DNA of 64,000 nucleotides, taken from the NCBI GenBank assembly GCA_964016885.1, contig OZ024740.1:393700001-393764000 (forward strand), written 5' to 3'. The stretch comes from Eledone cirrhosa. Lineage: Eukaryota. Both the position numbers and the translations under genes were made by a program. Below, in pieces: positions 5,106 through 49,209 of this stretch. Each line of letters begins with the position of its first letter. The stretch's first letter is position 1. The notes under the pieces were generated by a model. The model searched no databases and had not been told where the DNA came from. It worked only from the letters and a program-made list of their open reading frames with translations.

Positions 5106-5289
5106 ATACACACACACACAAATATATATATATATATATATATATACATGGAGGAATTTGTAATTTATTTGAAGCATTGTGTATAAAGTTTGAAAGTCAC
5201 GACAATCTGAAATGGACGAATAAATAGGTGTTGTGTGTTTTACCTTTATTTATACAAATAAATTAAGGTCAAACTTTATATATATATAT

Positions 5290-6036
5290 ATAGTTTTGCG
5301 AGGATTTTATATGAAATCGTGTGTCGAAACAAATATTGTTATACTTGGTCAGTGGTGCTCTAATGTTTCCTCCAGTTGCATTGTATTTTCTACGCCATCT
5401 TTATTTAGTCTGTTTATATATTTATTTGTCTATTTTATTTTGTCTTCTTTGCGCATGCGTTTGCGTGTGTGTATAGTGTTTTGTTTGATGTGTGTTCATG
5501 ATTGGGTGACTGTGTATTGGTTAATGTATTCTATCTTTACTAGTGTGTGTTGTTATTGTGCTTGTGTATGAATTTATTTATTTATTTATCTATTTATTTA
5601 TTTATACTTCTCTTAGGTCAGTGTTGTTTGTTTGGGTGTTGTTGTCATTCCATTCATTCTTTCTGTTTAGCCTTGGCCTTCTAAGTTCTATTTCACTGGC
5701 CTCTCTGATTTGCCTATCTGCTGGGTCATTTCTATGTATAGATATTATTCTAATTTCTATGTTACCGTCGTGTTGTTGTCTGGCATGTTCGTATAGTACC
5801 ACTGACGATGTTGCAGATGTGCAACGAAAGAACTTTGATAAACTATATATATGTGTTTGTGTCTATATTGTATCTGTATTTTTGACCGTTGCTCAGTCAA
5901 TGGCAACATTGAGGACCGAATAAATTAGATTACCGATATAAAAGACACAGAAGCGAAAAGCGAAAACCAACCAAACAGTGAGTGTGTTCTGTTATTAATT
6001 CTGGCAATATTACACAAATATATCCCTCCCCAAGTA

Positions 6037-6042
<6 letters not shown>
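5290..6042. mobile_element. Truncated Penelope-like element with inverted pLTR
   Basis: 5290-5798 matches the 3' end of the PLE at 45001-45730 (GIY-YIG C-terminus, minus strand). It then inverts to a plus-strand pLTR (5793-6042). Both flanks are (TA)n. Confidence 0.85.
5793..5846 (+). ncRNA. Minimal type I hammerhead ribozyme motif in a PLE pLTR
   Basis: CUGACGA-U-GUUGCA(GAUG)UGCAAC-GAAA-G(AA)C-UU, with an imperfect stem I. Homologous copies at 43204-43256 (+) and 45241-45292 (-) have core mutations. Confidence 0.6.
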
Positions 6043-6074
<32 letters not shown>

Positions 6075-6079
<5 letters not shown>

Positions 6080-7121: not shown

Positions 7122-7420
7122 GGAGGCACATGGCTTAGTGGTTAGAGCATTGGGCTTGCAATCGAAAGGTTGTGAGTTCAATTCTCAGACTCGGTGATGT
7201 GTTGTTTCCTTGAGCAAGACACTTTATTTCACATTGCTCCAGTTTACTCAGCTGTAGAAATGCTGCAAACTGGTCGTGGAGGTGCCACGGAAAAAAAAAC
7301 ACACAGACCTCACTGTAAATGAGGTTGGTGTTAGGAAGGACATCCAACTGTAGAAATCAAGCCAGAATCAGTTCCCATCCCACCCTTGCAAGCAGGGAAA
7401 AGCGGACATAAAATGATGAT
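7122..7420 (+). mobile_element. SINE family A, copy 2 (internal deletion)
   Basis: Same head and tail as 325-659. Confidence 0.85.
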
Positions 7421-35009: not shown

Positions 35010-36005
35010 CTGGGTGCCCCTCCTACTGTTAACCACATTTACAGTGTGTGCTGGGTGCTTTTTGTCATGTCACCTACACAACCACTTTATAGTGTGAACT
35101 GGGCACTTGTCATGACGCCTACACGACCACTTTACAGTGTGGACTGGCCACTTTTTGTTGTGACACCTACACAACCACTTTACAGTGTGGACTGGGCACT
35201 TTTTGTCGTGATACCTACACGACCACTTTACAGTGTGGACTGGGTGCTTTTTGTTATGGCACCTAGACGACCACTTTATAGTGTGAACTGGGCACTTGTC
35301 ATGACGCCTACACGACCACTTTACAGTGTGGACTGGCCACTTTTTGTTGTGACACCTACACAACCACTTTACAGTGTGGACTGGGCACTTTTTGCTTTTT
35401 GTCGTGATACCTATACAACCACTTTACAGTGTGGACTGGGTGCTTTTTGTTATGGCACCTAGACGACCACTTTACAGTGTGGACTGGGTGCTTTTTGTCG
35501 TGATACCTACACGACCACTTTACAGTGTGGACTGGGCACTTTTTGTCATGGCACCTAGACGACCAATTTACAGTGTGGACTGGGTGCTTTTTGTTATGGC
35601 ACCTAGACGACCACTTTACAGTGTGGACTGGGTGCTTTTTGTCATGGCACCTAGACGACAACTTTACAGTGTGGACTGGGTGCTTTTTGTCATGGCACCT
35701 AGACGACCACTTTACAGTGTGGACTGGGTGCTTTTTGTCGTGGCACCTAGACGACAACTTTACAGTGTGGACTGGGCACTTTTTGTCATGGCACCTAGAC
35801 GACCACTTTACAGTGTGGGCTGGGTGCTTTTTGTTATGGCACCTAGACGACCACTTTACAGTGTGGACTGGGTGCTTTTTGTCATGGCACCTAGACGACC
35901 ACTTTACAGTGTGGACTGGGTGCTTTTTGTCGTGATACCTACACGACCACTTTACAGTGTGAACTGGGCACCTTTGTCTTGTCACCGACATGACCACTTT
36001 ACAGT
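35010..36005. repeat. ~46-bp minisatellite (about 21 copies) amplified within an RTE 3' UTR
   Basis: Unit ACCACTTTACAGTGTGGACTGGGTGCTTTTTGTCATGGCACCTAGACG. The same module is present once or twice in the RTE and SINE 3' regions. Confidence 0.9.
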
Positions 36006-36099
36006 GGGGACTTGGGATTAGGGAGTGGGGAAGAAGCTTGGGAAAATTGTGGACAGGGTAGTAGGGGGAGGTATAAAAGTTGAATGAGAGAGAAGAAGG

Positions 36100-36874: not shown

Positions 36875-36971
36875 TAGAAGGGGTATTTAATTTGTTGGAA
36901 GTCCGACAAATATAAATGTTTATAACTGATTTAGAGCACTCAACAAGTTAGTGGAGTAAATATTCAATGAA

Positions 36972-38292
36972 ATGGAAACTATATTTATAAAACCATATTT
37001 ATTTTATTATATATATTTCAAGGGTACCAAAACATTGGTACGCTTTCCTCAGATAAAATACAAAGTTTGTTTTATAAATAGAGACATACCCATGAAAATC
37101 ATACCTTATCGGTTGGATATTCTCAGGATAGTGGAAATATATTATTGATTTTTCAAACTTATGGGTGAATATGCAAATGAATATGTAAATAATTGAAAAA
37201 CAACCGTTTATTTAAACGAATATGGAGAGAGAGAGAGAAGAGATAAGAGGAGAAGGATAAAATAGTGCAAGAGAGAGAAGAAAGAAAAAAAGGGAAGATA
37301 AATAAAAACTTTGAGGAAGATATATTCTAAGTATATATCTTAATAGTACATGTATTTACGATTATTAGTTGTTTAAAATTTGTTTTAAATTTGTTTATAA
37401 TATAATATATTTCTTCAGTTATAAATAAAATATAATATTTTTCTTCAGTAAATAAATAAATAAATAAATAAGTAAATAAATAAATAAATAGATGGGTATA
37501 TCATGTTATAGATAATTGTTCTAATGAGTTATGAGGATATTGGTTTTGTATTTTATGTAAATAAATATTAAGTTAAATTAAATTAAATTAACTGAGTTAA
37601 GAAGAATATTTATATTTATATGATTGAGAATAGGAAAATACGGAAACAACTCCGGTTTAATTTATTTATTCGTTAGTGTGAGACTATTTAGTCAAAATAA
37701 GTATAGATGTTGAAGATACATTTAGCCAGAATCAGTTAGTGGTTATAAATCTATTGAAAAAATATTAAAAAAATATTAATATTTATTTACATAAAATATT
37801 GAAAAAATATTAATATTTATTTACATAAAATACAAAACCAAAATCCCTCATAACTCATTAGAACAATTTTATAACTGAAGAAAAATATTATATTATAAAC
37901 AAATTAAAAAAAAATTTTAAACAACTAATAATCGTAAATCACGTACTATTAAGATATATACTTAGAATATATCTCCCTCAAAGTTTTTATTCATCTTCTT
38001 TCTTCTCTCTCGCACTATTTTATCCTTCTCTTATCTCTTCTCTCTCTCCATAGTCGTTTAAATAAAAGGTTGTTTTTCAATTATTTACATATTCATTTGC
38101 ATATTCACCCATAAGTTTGAAAAATCCCTAATATATTTCCACTATCCAGAGAATATCCAACCGATAAGGTATGATTTTCATGGGTCTGTCTCTATTTATA
38201 AAACAAACTTTGTATTTTATCTGAGGAAAGCGTACCAATGTGTTTTGGTACCCTTGAAATAAATATGGTTTTATAAATATAGTTTCCGTTTA
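36972..38292. repeat. Large inverted repeat (about 500-600-bp arms) of a hammerhead-bearing, PLE-type non-coding unit
   Basis: 36972-37571 is the reverse complement of about 37810-38292, with indels. Both flanks are near (TA)n. Confidence 0.8.
37000..37060 (-). ncRNA. Complete type I hammerhead motif
   Basis: UAUUUUAU-CUGAGGA-AAGCGUACCAA(UGUU)UUGGUACCCUU-GAAA-UAUAUA-UA|AUAAAAUA. It has a perfect 8-bp stem I, an extended stem II, a palindromic minimal stem III and an AUA triplet. Confidence 0.7.
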
Positions 38293-38303
38293 TATAATAT
38301 CAT

Positions 38304-39223: not shown

Positions 39224-39298
<75 letters not shown>

Positions 39299-39458
39299 TA
39301 GAATTGGAGCTCTGAAATAGCAATATATATATGGATGTATATATAATGTATTTTGCAATACACTTTATGCTTAATTAAAAGCATTTTGAAGACCGTAAGC
39401 TATTGTTTTAAAGTAGTGACAAATTCACTCACTTTGATCTCAGCAAACAGGGGAGATA

Positions 39459-39502
39459 AGCCGACAAGACTTGTTTCGCTTTGGTTGAAGCTTATCAAGG
39501 CC
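39459..39502 (-). ncRNA. Type I hammerhead ribozyme, U3-A8 variant (unit 1)
   Basis: GGCC-UUGAUAA-GCUU(CAACCA)AAGC-GAA-ACAA(GUC)UUGU-C|GGCU. Stem I extends over 39435-39529 and is closed by TGATCTCAG/CTGAGATCA. Confidence 0.75.
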
Positions 39503-39774
39503 AACTACCCCACCTGTCTACTGAGATCATTGATGTTATATTCCTATAGAAATCTAGTAAATAATCAGGAGCTGATTATGCAGAGCGGTTGTTGGTCAGG
39601 CAGAAATTAAAAATTAGAATTGGAGCTCTGAAATAGCAATATATATATGGATGTATATATAATGTATTTTGCAATACACTTTATGCTTAATTAAAAGCAT
39701 TTTGAAGACCGTAAGCTATTGTTTTAAAGTAGTGACAAATTCACTCACTTTGATCTCAGCAAACAGGGGAGATA

Positions 39775-39818
39775 AGCCGACAAGACTTGTTTCGCTTTGG
39801 TTGAAGCTTATCAAGGCC
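39775..39818 (-). ncRNA. Type I hammerhead ribozyme (unit 2)
   Basis: Identical to 39459-39502, offset 316. Confidence 0.75.
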
Positions 39819-40090
39819 AACTACCCCACCTGTCTACTGAGATCATTGATGTTATATTCCTATAGAAATCTAGTAAATAATCAGGAGCTGATTATGCAGA
39901 GCGGTTGTTGGTCAGGCAGAAATTAAAAATTAGAATTGGAGCTCTGAAATAGCAATATATATATGGATGTATATATAATGTATTTTGCAATACACTTTAT
40001 GCTTAATTAAAAGCATTTTGAAGACCGTAAGCTATTGTTTTAAAGTAGTGACAAATTCACTCACTTTGATCTCAGCAAACAGGGGAGATA

Positions 40091-40134
40091 AGCCGACAAG
40101 ACTTGTTTCGCTTTGGTTGAAGCTTATCAAGGCC
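40091..40134 (-). ncRNA. Type I hammerhead ribozyme (unit 3)
   Basis: Identical to 39459-39502, offset 632. Confidence 0.75.
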
Positions 40135-40881
40135 AACTACCCCACCTGTCTACTGAGATCATTGATGTTATATTCTTATAGAAATCTAGTAAATAATCAG
40201 GAGCTGATTATGCAGAGCGACCAATAACCGCTCTGCATAATCAGCTCCTGATACATAAAGTGTATTGCAAAATACATTGTATATACATCCATATATATAT
40301 TGCTATTTCAGAGCTCCAATTCTAATTTTTAATTTCGCACACACATCCCTGCTGACCATTATCACAACAACGAACCTCTCTACTACTACTACACACACAC
40401 ACACACACACACATTTGTTTTGAAAGACTTATTTTTCAGTGACTTCTCAATCAGCCCACACAAACCTACATTTGGCGCAAAATCAATTTTTAACATTCAC
40501 ATGACCTCTGCCGACCAATCAAAATTGTTTTGACCACAAGAATTTTTGCAACACGAATTGGCGCGAAACTTATTTTAATACATCTGGAGCCACTTTTTTC
40601 ACATAAAACAGGTAGAATTTCCAAAACTAATCAGATTAGAGCAAACATCACGGGCTCTCTATCTCAAAATTTTTTTAGAAAAGCATTAGAAATGCGCAAC
40701 CGGTAAAAACTTAAAACCAAAACTGAATACTAACCAATACTATTACTAATTTTCACTTATTCCTAATAAAACTATTTTTCACTGTGAACAATTTGTCAGC
40801 ATTTTCTTTTCCATTTACCAATATATCATAACTCGTGTGTTACACCTCTATTCTTTTAAATATATATATATATATATATAT

Positions 40882-41901: not shown

Positions 41902-42422
41902 GAGAGAAATGGCTTCTACAGGACTAGAACTGTTTCATTCGGGAGAAATCATCATGAATGATGTGGTGTAGGTGAGGCTTGTGCATGCTATATGTATGAA
42001 TCATCTTCAGCCTGTGCTCATGGGAAGGCGGGTCATGTGTATTACTGCATAACACCAGAGATCTCGGTCCTGTGTCATCGTCTTTGAGAGGTACAATTGA
42101 GCAAGGTCAGCTTTTATCACATCATCACAAGTCTTCCTACTCCATGGCTGAGTTCAAATCCTGTTGAGGTCAACTTTGGCTTTTATACATTTGATGTTGA
42201 TAAAAAAAAGCACTAGTCTAGTACAAGGGTCGATTCTTTCTCTATATCCCTTGCTCAATTCCATCTCTCACTCTCTATTTTCTCTGGAAGAAATCTGCTG
42301 TATTCAGACATGGGGAAGGAAGGGCTCCACCAGGTTACAAGATACCATAGAAGCATTGTATGTCAATACAGCTCCCTTATGACTCCCTTGTGATTTATGG
42401 GACCATGCATGCATATATATAC

Positions 42423-42498
<76 letters not shown>

Positions 42499-42504
<6 letters not shown>

Positions 42505-43427
42505 GATTAAAATGGTAGAAACTACCATTAAATCCCTGATCAGCAAGACATGCCCCTTTAAGAAAACCCACTGTACAAATAAGAAATGTGTTATATGTAA
42601 AATGAACCCCCAGATAAACTGTAAAACTAGAAATGTAGTCTATAGCATAAGATGTACAGAGGGTACTTGTAGAAACGTGACAACGACATACATAGGTGAG
42701 ACAGCTTAAAGCATAGGAGAAAGAATAGACCAGCACTGGGGGGAACTAAAAGGACAAAAAAAAAACGGTTGAGTACTATACGAACATGCCAGACAAAGAC
42801 ATGATGGTAATAAAGACAACATAGAAATTAAAATCATATCTAAGCATAGAAATGACTCAACAGGTAGGCAAATCAGAGAAGCAACTGAGATAGATATAAG
42901 AAGACCGAAGTTGAACAGAAAGACCGAATGGAATAACAACAATCATACCCAAACAAACAATACTGACTTAAGGGAAATATGAATAAATAAATATATACAC
43001 AAGTACAATAACAACAAACACATATAAACACAAGTGAACAAAGATAAAATACAAAACACATACACTCAAACGCGAACACACACACCAAACATTATACACA
43101 CACACAAACGCATGCGCAGAGACAGAGACAAGAAGAAATAAATAAATAAAAATAAAAATGATGTAGACATTACAGTACAATACAACATAACAGGAGGAAA
43201 CAATAGTACCACTGATTATGATGCAGATGTGCGACGAAAGAAATTTGATAGACTATATATATATATTTATATCTGTATTTTTAATGATAAACATTGATTG
43301 ACCAGCGGTTAATAAATTAACTATGGAGATATAAAAGATACAGAAGCGAAAACCAACCAAACAGTGAGTTTGTTCTGTTATTATTTCTGGCAATATTATA
43401 ACAATATGACCCTCCCCAAGTATAACA

Positions 43428-43428
<1 letters not shown>
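42499..43428 (+). mobile_element. 5'-truncated Penelope-like copy (GIY-YIG, 3' UTR, pLTR)
   Basis: HCTNKKCVICK...CKTRNVVYSIRC...YIGETA, homologous to 45001-46010. Both flanks are (TA)n. Confidence 0.85.
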
Positions 43429-43497
<69 letters not shown>

Positions 43498-43565
43498 TTA
43501 TGTATATATATATATATGTATATATATATATTGTTATACTTTGGGATATATATATATATATATAT

Positions 43566-45000: not shown

Positions 45001-48000
45001 AGTTTTGCCAGATTTTTTATATGAAATCGTGTGTCGAAACAAATATTGTTATACTTGGGGAGGGTCATATTTGTGTAATAATATTGCTCAAATTAATAAC
45101 AGAACACACTCACTGTTTGGTTGGTTTTCGCTTCTGTGTCTTTTATATTGGTTAACTTAATTTATTCGGTCCTCAATGTTACCATTGACTGACCAACGGT
45201 CAAAAATACAGATACAATATAAACACAAACACATATATATAGTCTAACAAAGTTCTTTCGTTGCACATCTGCAACATTGTCAGTGGTGCTATTATGTTTC
45301 CTCCTGTTGTATTGTATGCCTACGCCATCTTTATTTAGTCTGTTTATTTATTTATTTATTTTTTTTTTGTCTTCTCTGCGCATGCGTTTGCGTGTGTGTA
45401 TAGTGTTTGATGTGTGTTCGTGTTTGGGTGACTGTTTATTGGTTATTGTATTCTACCTTAGTTTACTAGTGTGTGTTTATATGTGTTTGTTGTTATTGTG
45501 ATTGTGTGTGTATTTATTTATTTATTTATACTTCTCTTAGGTCAGTATTGTTTGTTTGGGTGTTGTTATTCCATTCATTTTTTCTGTTTAGCCTTGGCCT
45601 TCTAAGTTCTATTTCGCTGGCCTCTCTGATTTGCCTATCTGTTGGGTCATTTCTATGTTTAGATATTATTCTAATTTCTATGTTGTCTATGTTACCGTCG
45701 TGTTGTTGTCTGGCATGTTCGTATAGTACTCAACCGTTTTTCGTCCTTTTAGTTCTCCCCAGTGTTGGTCTATCCTTTCACCTATGCTACGAGCTGTCTC
45801 GCCTATGTATGTTGTTGTCATGTTTCTGCAAGTACTCTCTGTACGTCTTATGCTATAGACTACGTTTCTAGTTTTACAGTTTATCCAGGGGTTTACTTTA
45901 CATATAATACATTTCCTATTAGTACAGTGGGTTTTCTTAAAAGGGTAGGTTTTGCTGATCAGGGATTTTATGGTGGTTCCTGGCTTTTCTACCTCCTTAA
46001 TCTTTAAGTGGGTCTTTCTCAGGGCCTCTCTACACTGGTTAGCTAATTTCCCTCCAGGGGTAGCGTCCACAAACATGACACTCTGGTATCTCTGGTTGTC
46101 GTACCATGAGGTGGCTTTCCCTATCTTATGTCTAGTCCTATCTAAGCTATTCCATGATTTGCTCCTGTATAATGGGCAAATTCCTTTCATGTCCAGTTCT
46201 ATGAGGATCTTATACTTCTCCGTGGCTCTTTCGTATACTCTGATTCTGTCTCTTTGGTTGTAGCCAGAGAACTGCATGCGGTTGATGAAGTGTTGGATGT
46301 GTCTTTCCATTTCTGTTGGGTCGCACATGCGGGACACCTTCTTCATCACTCGTACCAAGTCTGCGATCAGAATATTAAACTTAGCACTACTGGACATTGC
46401 TGAGTTTTTGAGTATCAGGTATTTGGAGGCCATGAGTTTAGCGTAGTGTGAGTGGAGAATTTGGGCTCTCTCGTCTATAGTGTTAATCCAGAGTTCCGTG
46501 TCTAATACAGGTAGGCTATTGTTAGGGTGTTTGGAAGGGTAGTCGATAGTTACAGTTATACTCTGGTGTATGGAATTAGCTATCTGCTGGATACTTTCCA
46601 TTGTGCTACGTTCTAAATCAAACTTGTTAGTACTCTCTAGTGGGGATGTTCTTATAACTATATTGATGTCATCTACGTAACGAGAGTACACGATGGGGTT
46701 TATGGAGCTCTCATTAAGGAGATCTTTAAGTCTCCTTTCCCACCATACCATAAAAAGGTTGGCAACGTCACCAGCTATGCTGACGCCAGTGGCTGCTCCC
46801 TCATTTTGGGTGTAGATATTCTCGTTGAATTTGAATATGTGGCCCTTTAGGGTAGTTTCGATACTAACCCCTATTGCATGTGCGACCATTTTTCTTACCT
46901 GATCATTGTTTTGGGGGGTCCGTATAGCTTTGGTCCACCCAATCCACCTTCCCATGGGAGTCCTTTTTGCCATTGAGGTTATGGTGGGGGGTCTACCTCT
47001 TATGGGTCTACTGGGGCAGAAACGTCTAAGGTCATGGCTGTCTAGGTAGTCAGTGTCATAGGTAAGTCTAAGTAGGAGGCCCAGTTCGTCTGTGTTGACG
47101 TCGCAGAAGTCTACCTCACTCTCAATGATCATCTCCACACATTTTTCCACAGCAAAATCAATGTTAATGGATGGGTACAGTGATACCACATCCATACTGC
47201 CTATTATGCAGTTGGATAGGTTTTTGTTTTTGTTGCACTCACTGATTCTGTTGAGGAGGTCCTCTGTACTGTCACATACATCTGGGGACATCTTGATTAT
47301 GGGGCGTCATTGAGAGGAAGTAGGAGATCCTGTAGTTGCTAGCTATATTTGCTCCGCATACAGGTCTTGTTGGTGGTCCTGTTGTCGGGTCGTCGACTGT
47401 CTTATGGTCTTTGCGGATCCCATACAAGGGTGGTATGCTATTGTTAGACGCCTGAAAGTTGTTGGCAGTGCGTCTGTTTGGCTTTAGGATGACGGTCCAC
47501 ATCATCATGTGAGCGTTGAGGATTTTCTCTCTCCCATCATGTATTTGCTGTGCAATTTCGCTCGTGTTGGTGATGTGGGGTTGCATAGCTTTGATGTAGT
47601 TCGGCATGCTGTCTATTGACATCCTACCAGACTTATCCGTGGGTTGACATACTACCTCACAATCCCTTGTGCGCTGCTTGAGGCTAACCAAGCCTTCTAC
47701 AGGTTTCCTCCCAAGTTGTTGGACCTCTGGTCTGCTTTGTCTCTTAGTATACCTCTCTACTATTTGTCTAATCTTATTTCTAGCTATGGTGAACTGTGCC
47801 ACTGTCTCGTCATCTATTTGTTGTGGTATACAAACCCTTTATGTTGCTACATGTATTATTTCTGTTATTACCACTGTGGTTGTTGTTGTTGTTACTCGTA
47901 TTATTACCGTTATTACTACTGTGGTCGCTGCTGCTGTGTCTGTAGTTAATGTTTCTATTATTATTATTGTGGTCGTTGTTGTTGTTCTGTCTATCGTTAG

Positions 48001-49209
48001 TATTATTACCATTATGACTATTTCTCACTCTCCTGCTATTGTTATTGTTATGACTATTACTATTATAGCTGTTATTTCTATACTCAGAGTTATTGTTTAT
48101 ATTACTACTATCGTTATTATTGTTGTTGTTGTCCGTATAGTTGTTGTTTACTTTTGCATTCCTACGTATTTTTGTGAAACACTTTTCCAGCTCCGCTTTG
48201 CACTCAATAGGGTTAATCTTTTTGTAGATGGCAAATTTTGGTGGTAGCTGCAGGATTTGTTGTTCTTGTTCACTGATTAAAGTGTTCCCATAAATATTTA
48301 CTGTGTGGTCATTGGTAAATTCTACATCAGTCATACGGATATTGTTGATGTTATCTGGGTATTTTTGTGAATATTCTATTTTTCTTTCTTCTAGTTTTTT
48401 CTTATTCATCCATTCTAATTTCTTATTGAAATGCCTATTGCATTCGTTTCGGGCGTATTTCGTTTCACGTCGAATGACGCTCATGAGTTCATCCCACTCG
48501 TTTGGTGTGGTGGAATTTCGAACTTCCTTACCGTTAATGCGTTTCTGTCTGTAAAGTTCGTTAACTTTTGTGTATGGTGTTCTTTTCATATTAACTGTTA
48601 TTGTGTGTTTTAGTCGTTCAGCTTGTGTTTTGTTTAATAATAAATTATTTACTTGTTTTGATATGTTTGTTGTGTATATTTTGAAGGAAACAGTGTTTTA
48701 AGAAGCGGACTTGTTCTGTTGTTATTGTAGTTTTTATATAACAGAAAACAGTGTATTTCAATAACCTTTCAGCTTGGCACAAGCTAATGCCATAGCGGCG
48801 ATGAATTAGTTTTGCGAGGTTTTTGATATGAAATCGTGTGTCGAAACAAATATTGTTATACTTGGGGAGGGTCATATTTGTGTAATAATATTGCCAGAAT
48901 TAATAACAGAACACACTCACTGTTTGGTTGGTTTTCGCTTCTGTGTCTTTTATATCGGTTAATTTAATTTATTCGGTCCTCAATGTTACCATTGACTGAC
49001 CAACGGTCAAAAGTAGACTATATATATGTGTTTGTGTCTATATTATATCTGTATATTTGACCGTTGGTCAGTCAGTAGTAACATTGAGGACCGAATAAAT
49101 TAAATTAACCGATATAGAAGGCTCAGAAGCGAAAACCAACCAAACAGTGAGTGTGTTCTGTTATCAATTCTGGCAATATTATTACACAAATATGACCCTC
49201 TCCAAGTAT

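Follow-up and report, generated by a model that had tools for sequence, protein, structure and literature searches.

A probably functional type I hammerhead with a U3-A8 core in a tandem retrozyme array of Eledone cirrhosa

Results

Three identical hammerheads in a tandem array

The stretch of Eledone cirrhosa DNA analysed here (64 kb, called the window below) contains a tandem array of short units, each of which carries a type I hammerhead with an extended helix I (Table 1). Differences between the units amount to 0 and 1 base, and their GC content is 35%. None of them encloses an ATG-initiated open reading frame of at least 30 aa: the three such frames that exist, of 30-33 aa, occur only at the ends of the array.

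Table 1 Features of the retrozyme array and its hammerheads in the window
Feature	Position	Strand	Basis
Tandem array, 316-bp unit x 2.9, 99% matches	39292..40219	-	repeat analysis
Inverted truncated copy at element 5' end: unit 305-272, then 77-1 + 6 nt	40219..40336	+	self-comparison
(TA)n microsatellite adjoining the element's RNA-sense 3' end	39230..39293	.	repeat analysis
Type I hammerhead, extended helix I, copy 1	39435..39529	-	descriptor, Rfam, folding
Helix I 5' strand, whole	39529-39499	-	descriptor match
Helix I 3' strand, whole	39462-39435	-	descriptor match
Core positions 3-9, UUGAUAA; U3 = 39498, A8 = 39493	39492..39498	-	descriptor; run variants
Stem II, 4 bp (GCUU/AAGC), G10.1-C11.1	39478..39491	-	descriptor; run variants
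Loop II, hexaloop CAACCA; L2.A6 = 39482, L2.5 = 39483	39487-39482	-	descriptor; run variants
Core G12 A13 A14 (GAA)	39475..39477	-	descriptor
Helix III, palindromic 11-mer ACAAG-U-CUUGU	39464..39474	-	folding; run variants
Predicted cleavage site, GUC triplet, after C17 = 39463	39462..39463	-	descriptor; hammerhead consensus
Proximal helix I 5' strand; pairs with 39462-39457, one G.U and one U.U	39499..39504	-	descriptor, folding
Proximal helix I 3' strand	39457..39462	-	descriptor, folding
Internal loop 1, 5' side GUAG (Schistosoma: GUAC); G 39505 replaces extrahelical C8	39505..39508	-	descriptor; Schistosoma comparison
Internal loop 1, 3' side UCUC (Schistosoma: UCCA); IL1.U1 = 39456	39453..39456	-	descriptor; Schistosoma comparison
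GUUG stretch	39505-39502	-	sequence
Hammerhead copy 2, identical; U3 = 39814	39751..39845	-	sequence, descriptor
Hammerhead copy 3, identical; U3 = 40130	40067..40161	-	sequence, descriptor

The RNA sense of the hammerhead is the minus strand, and all the letters of it named by the first-pass annotation were recovered in the window. The three copies are identical across the ribozyme, with the second and third spaced 316 and 632 bases from copy 1. Apart from the swap at positions 3 and 8, all 14 invariant core positions of the hammerhead are present: the motif has U4 G5 A6 N7, a purine at position 9, G12 A13 A14, the A15.1-U16.1 pair and H17, and its three helices surround the core with helix I open-ended, in the type I layout. 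Positions 3 and 8 form a Watson-Crick pair, U3-A8, which is an accepted natural variant. The descriptor and the three identical copies bear out the annotation's hammerhead with a U3-A8 core in a tandem retrozyme; the range it assigned, 39459..39529, takes in the core and other elements but omits most of the helix I 3' arm, which reaches 39435.

The descriptor permitted five pairings at positions 3 and 8 and was run over both strands of the 64 kb, where it matched only the three U3-A8 copies and one unrelated minimal hammerhead. In a 1,151-nt Rfam search, the best ribozyme match of each copy is Hammerhead_HH9 (RF02275), with an E-value of 0.0017 and 24.6 bits. This is under the gathering score of 52, so a standard Rfam scan misses the hammerhead; as HH9 is a specific family, the failed gathering score concerns HH9 membership only. 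The Rfam scan at the gathering threshold reported no hammerhead and only two tRNA-like matches. These are near-identical and degenerate (329-392 and 7130-7191 on the plus strand; 29.9 and 31.4 bits), and are probably the heads of a tRNA-derived SINE. The repeats of the window are of animal type, and its SINEs may be octopus-like.

Folding of a 104-nt region gives a z-score of -6.46, with none of 200 shuffles folding equally well, and the minimum-energy fold is a non-catalytic register. A plus-strand reading was rejected: the plus strand shows no notable fold (z 0.68), and only 31 of the 35 pairs are valid on it, the other four being G.U pairs that are valid only on the minus strand. We also dismissed miRNA and sRNA matches at 40180-40294, which reflect the hairpin of the DNA inversion.

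Variation among family copies preserves pairing

The unit is multi-copy, with diverged variants and head-to-tail joints among contigs of three runs, which carry three organism labels and come from three studies: 24 contigs in X1, 1,439 in X2 and 3 in X8 were aligned to one unit, although the contig depth of a repeat unit is not its copy number. Four of 24 listed runs were compared in all, and the fourth, X16, gave no reads matching the unit. Relatives of at least 80% identity were included and variants were counted at a share of at least 2%; rows of small share were left out, and the contigs themselves drop rare variants.

C3, which would read as A>G at 39498, is absent at a share of at least 2% in X1, X2 and X8. 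G8 is likewise absent at that share in X2 and X8. For X1 the per-run tallies give five more calls, known by type only, among them one low-support T>C and two G>A, which could represent G8 or a change in loop II; as none of the five is A>G, C3 is excluded in X1. Divergent loose contig ends also retain U3 and A8. U3-A8 is fixed across the family copies examined, and the joint change of both partners that the first-pass annotation took as a sign of selection is therefore one inherited state and not measured covariation.

Selection on the hammerhead fold is supported by the variants at paired positions. X2 has 31 substitutions at 27 places, and none of the 14 invariant core positions varies at a share of at least 2%. 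All seven substitutions at paired positions retain pairing, against a mean of 2.9 under a random paired-site null (P about 0.0008); this null keeps the base and the substitution type, and counts a change as consistent if the partner varies anywhere. In helix III an A-U pair is swapped for U-A, with the changes at 39471 and 39467 reaching 74% and 70% of X2 depth, and both are present in the one X8 contig that spans the site. In helix I, the changes at 39528 and 39436, each seen separately, would together lead from G-C towards A-U, that at 39515 from A-U to G.U, that at 39518 from G.U to A-U and that at 39520 from U.G to C-G; such G.U intermediates make sense only for the minus-strand RNA. Loop II varies at L2.5, which is often A (CAACAA; 64% of X2 depth). 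Asking for covariation across family copies, as the annotation had proposed, yields an invariant core in X2 and a pair 3-8 that does not covary; its claim of selection finds support in the fold, and not in covariation of that pair. As a region, the ribozyme shows no significant deficit of variable places in X2 (3 of 56, against 24 of 255 in the remaining unit; Fisher P 0.25).

Summed X2 contig depth at 39330-39430 is some tenfold higher than across the ribozyme, depth being a poor measure. A more abundant repeat, or a subfamily that lacks the hammerhead, may share this region.

Helix III favours a double hammerhead

The helix III 11-mer forms no stable hairpin when folded alone, and its self-duplex is computed at -10.1 kcal/mol. 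Every helix III variant that we saw keeps self-complementarity around a centre of 0-1 nt; one X1 contig has an extra helix III pair, and one loose contig end has a perfect 12-nt palindrome at this position. In a two-unit transcript, the double hammerhead is computed to lie 3.4-3.5 kcal/mol above the ensemble, compared to 14.1-14.3 kcal/mol for two monomers, and the corresponding values for two units of the X2-majority variant are 3.6 and 14.7 kcal/mol. The computed preference for the double form is about 11 kcal/mol, in a model whose fold energies omit core and tertiary contacts. In large part this difference is generic and arises because two short hairpin loops disappear, and even the double form lies above the minimum-energy structure. 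For a single unit, the lowest-energy prediction has U3-G5 paired to helix III in a non-catalytic register, and the active monomer takes a predicted share of 3e-5, which C3-G8 raises about 20-fold in silico. We did not adopt the notion of U3 as a designed monomer-silencing switch, because the X2-majority variant does not preserve the exact pairing of the misfold. The dimeric folding through the near-palindromic helix III that the first-pass annotation had envisaged is supported by the computed preference and by the retained self-complementarity, and follows a published rule: a palindromic helix III with dimer cleavage is described as usual for animal type I hammerheads (PMC4209133, PMC7229834).

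We find it unlikely that cleavage takes place mainly in the monomer, with a helix III of four pairs and a GUC triloop and a merely incidental palindrome. This four-pair stem is able to form, helix III exceeds the 1-2 bp reported as typical of obligate dimers (PMC4209133), and coral and mussel retrozyme monomers are described to cleave during transcription (PMC7229834), but the 11-mer with its favourable self-duplex and no stable hairpin, the self-complementarity of all variants and the energy difference per two units each argue for the double form. Still less probable, in our judgement, is a ribozyme that is dead or nearly so, weakened by U3-A8 together with the misfold, in a repeat that now multiplies as satellite DNA or is passively carried by PLEs. 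The non-catalytic predicted minimum is in keeping with such decay, as are the lack of a regional excess of conservation and an in silico C3-G8 core that comes nearer to the active fold (1.7 against 3.5 kcal/mol), and minimal hammerheads of PLEs are reported to cleave poorly in vitro (PMC4209133). However, the pairing-preserving and compensatory variation, complete with G.U intermediates and accompanied by an invariant core, speaks against it, and U3-A8 hammerheads have been reported as active in vitro (PMC3088659).

Loop II resembles the Schistosoma docking element

In the Schistosoma hammerhead, a loop CAAAUA docks on the internal loop UCCA:GUAC through a reverse-Hoogsteen pair between IL1.U1 and L2.A6, and C8 is stacked in front of L2.C1 (PMC2632901). 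Here the two elements are CAACCA (often CAACAA) and UCUC:GUAG, at a 6-nt spacing equal to that of Schistosoma. The contact residues are in register, with U at 39456 and A at 39482, and the position of the extrahelical pyrimidine is occupied by G (39505). By analogy, IL1.U1 is predicted to be the reverse-Hoogsteen partner of L2.A6, and the G at the IL1.8 position might pair with L2.C1.

The first-pass annotation had suggested a different contact, between loop II and a GUUG that it placed at the stem I internal loop. Three of these four bases (2.4-2.6) belong to the proximal 6-nt helix I strand, and a four-base Watson-Crick pseudoknot of loop II CAAC with GUUG must therefore open helix I, leaving only three proximal pairs. 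Several observations are compatible with it: a complement to loop II exists, CAAC and GUUG are both invariant at a share of at least 2% in X2, L2.5, where loop II commonly varies, falls outside the four bases, helix I pairs 2.4-2.6 are weak (G.U, U.U and U-A), and a pseudoknot between stems I and II has been predicted for about 40% of hammerheads (PMC3088659). Nevertheless, a 4-nt match in the helix I strands arises for 20% of the 4,096 possible hexaloops, for 14 of 64 CANNNA loops and for 12 of the 20 permuted forms of this loop, no match extends to 5 nt, the duplex is computed at only -1.1 kcal/mol, and the loops fit the Schistosoma contact instead. A weak further counter is a G2.4 to A change in one X1 and two X2 loose contig ends, which converts the helix I G.U to A-U and costs the pseudoknot a G-C pair; it counts for little because the contigs concerned do not show loop II. 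The match is at chance level and shows no covariation. We regard CAAC/GUUG as probably a chance match, and the pseudoknot as poorly supported and highly doubtful.

The array has the form of a retrozyme and a Penelope-type footprint

According to Cervera and de la Pena 2020 (PMC7229834), non-LTR retrozymes consist of tandemly repeated units that are about 170-400 nt long and carry type I hammerheads, and they are expressed in coral, mussel and axolotl as circular RNAs. The array agrees with this form: its units fall within about 170-400 bp, their GC content is below 45%, at least two consecutive hammerheads are intact (here three), and they have no protein-coding capacity. The predicted unit circle is 58% self-paired, with a folding energy of -81 kcal/mol. 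The main text of PMC7229834 has no mention of octopus or cephalopod.

The truncated copy at the 5' end of the element is inverted, so the insertion is bounded on both sides by the element's 3' end. Tandem units, an inverted 5'-truncated copy and a microsatellite target together make a Penelope-type footprint: partial tandems, inverted 5'-truncated copies and (TA)n targeting are given as PLE traits (Craig et al., 10.1101/2021.04.23.441226), and animal retrozymes have been proposed to be non-autonomous PLE derivatives (Li et al. 2026 preprint, 10.64898/2026.07.22.740005). Within the 64-kb window, the unit has no sequence similarity to PLE remains; broken PLE-like reverse-transcriptase frames lie 5-8 kb from the array. 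Such a footprint on a retrozyme array hints, on structural grounds, at the PLE origin proposed recently, and the retrozyme, a non-autonomous tandem retroelement, was probably moved by PLE enzymes.

Other elements in the window

The broken reverse-transcriptase frames at 45687-48697 (minus strand) match Pfam RVT_1 with an E-value of 6.9e-06, under the cut-off, and end in a YIGET motif, which we take to be that of the PLE GIY-YIG endonuclease. They are flanked by direct and inverted repeats, and more fragments are found at 42383-43500 and 5277-6079. The flanking repeat of the PLE carries a hammerhead family of its own, with C3-G8 at 5802 (plus strand) and C3 mismatched with A8 at 45283 (minus strand); the mismatch, which contrasts with the paired U3-A8 of the retrozyme hammerhead, could be CpG decay because position 7 is C. 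A further, unrelated minimal hammerhead of PLE type, with C3-G8 and a long stem II, is present in three copies at 38221 (plus), 37052 (minus) and 29299 (plus). Two of these sit in inverted 468-bp arms that are 89% identical (36960-37425 and 37868-38300) and whose outer ends adjoin (TA)n tracts. The window also contains a 48-bp minisatellite at 35032-36012 (20.4 copies, 85% matches), which resembles part of a repeat dispersed in the window.

Discussion

We think it likely that the motif is a real and probably functional type I hammerhead of U3-A8 type within a retrozyme array, which most likely acts by double-hammerhead cleavage with docking in the manner of Schistosoma. From the sequence we infer a multimeric transcript of the minus strand, in which the palindromic helix III strands of neighbouring units would pair to form the double hammerhead. 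Each core would then cut after C17 and free a 316-nt monomer, which could be circularised, and mobilisation would presumably fall to PLE enzymes. U3-A8 would act as a Watson-Crick replacement of C3-G8 under which the tertiary pair stays intact, as does the ribose at position 8. Docking between helices I and II would most likely use IL1.U1 and L2.A6, in a non-Watson-Crick pair, with no four-base pseudoknot.

A bolder version, to which we give a fairly low probability, is that U3-A8, fixed in a multi-species family, is offset by an undescribed docking, either of the IL1.8 G with loop II C1 or of CAAC with GUUG, and that a U3-dependent misfold silences monomers so that only multimers cleave. If this were true, families with fixed U3-A8 would be invisible to retrozyme surveys based on CUGANGA.

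Exchanges at positions 3 and 8 of hammerheads were reportedly treated by Przybilski and Hammann in 2007. Perreault et al. 2011 (PMC3088659) describe several natural hammerheads in which C3 and G8 covary to U3 and A8, and report from earlier work that U3-A8 cores are active in vitro. About 1,300 minimal hammerheads with U3-A8 are tied to Schistosoma PLEs and had been missed by a first descriptor (Cervera and de la Pena 2014, PMC4209133). U3-A8, the palindromic helix III, dimer cleavage and tandem retrozymes are thus each already known. Our literature search found no canonical U3-A8 hammerhead in a tandem retrozyme, though the supplements of PMC7229834 and of the 2026 preprint may list the family; it also found no report of C3U/G8A mutants.

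Related motifs were sought by pattern scans that left positions 3 and 8 free and imposed stem II with a CAANNA loop. Viral sequences gave 0 loci. Metagenomes gave 12 loci with the hammerhead's stem II and CAANNA, of which 10 have C3-G8, 2 have U3-G8 and 0 have U3-A8; Rfam hammerhead models match seven of these loci, with scores under the threshold. None of the 12 resembles the 316-bp unit beyond domain II, and neither scan revealed a C3-G8 sister of the retrozyme family. Eight of the metagenomic loci (L001, L003, L006 and L008-L012) contain, around 401-426, hammerhead-like motifs whose stem II is identical to that of the retrozyme; L006 is a type I motif with loop 1 GUAC/UCU, near a GGTTAG repeat tract.

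Unless their descriptors allow for covariation at positions 3 and 8, retrozyme surveys may miss whole families. The U3-A8 retrozyme also offers a natural test case for peripheral contacts that support a U3-A8 core.

Comparison with known systems

The array shares with the metazoan non-LTR retrozymes described in PMC7229834 a tandem unit, here of 316 bp and 35% GC, that lacks an open reading frame, contains one type I hammerhead and is predicted to form a self-paired circle. Those retrozymes are canonical, whereas the hammerhead here has U3-A8, a longer palindromic helix III (5+1+5) and a very long distal helix I. With PLE insertions as described the array has in common the partial tandem, the inverted 5'-truncated copy with a short one-sided extension and the microsatellite flank; the extension is 30-40 nt there and 6 nt here, and the retrozyme has no reverse-transcriptase or endonuclease gene.

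The covariation at positions 3 and 8 is identical to that of the hammerheads of the Schistosoma mansoni Cercyon PLE (PMC4209133) and of the examples in PMC3088659. The Cercyon motifs are described as minimal, heterogeneous and mostly single (PMC4209133); unlike them, the hammerhead here has a canonical 4-bp stem II, a hexaloop and a 6-nt helix I, and is repeated in a tandem array of nearly identical units. In its periphery it resembles the extended hammerhead of Schistosoma mansoni (HH9), with which it shares a hexaloop 2 with C:A ends, a proximal helix I of 6 nt, IL1.U1 and the GUA of the internal loop. The Schistosoma ribozyme has C3-G8 and IL1.C8, in place of which the Eledone hammerhead has U3-A8, a G at the IL1.C8 position and a U.U mismatch in helix I.
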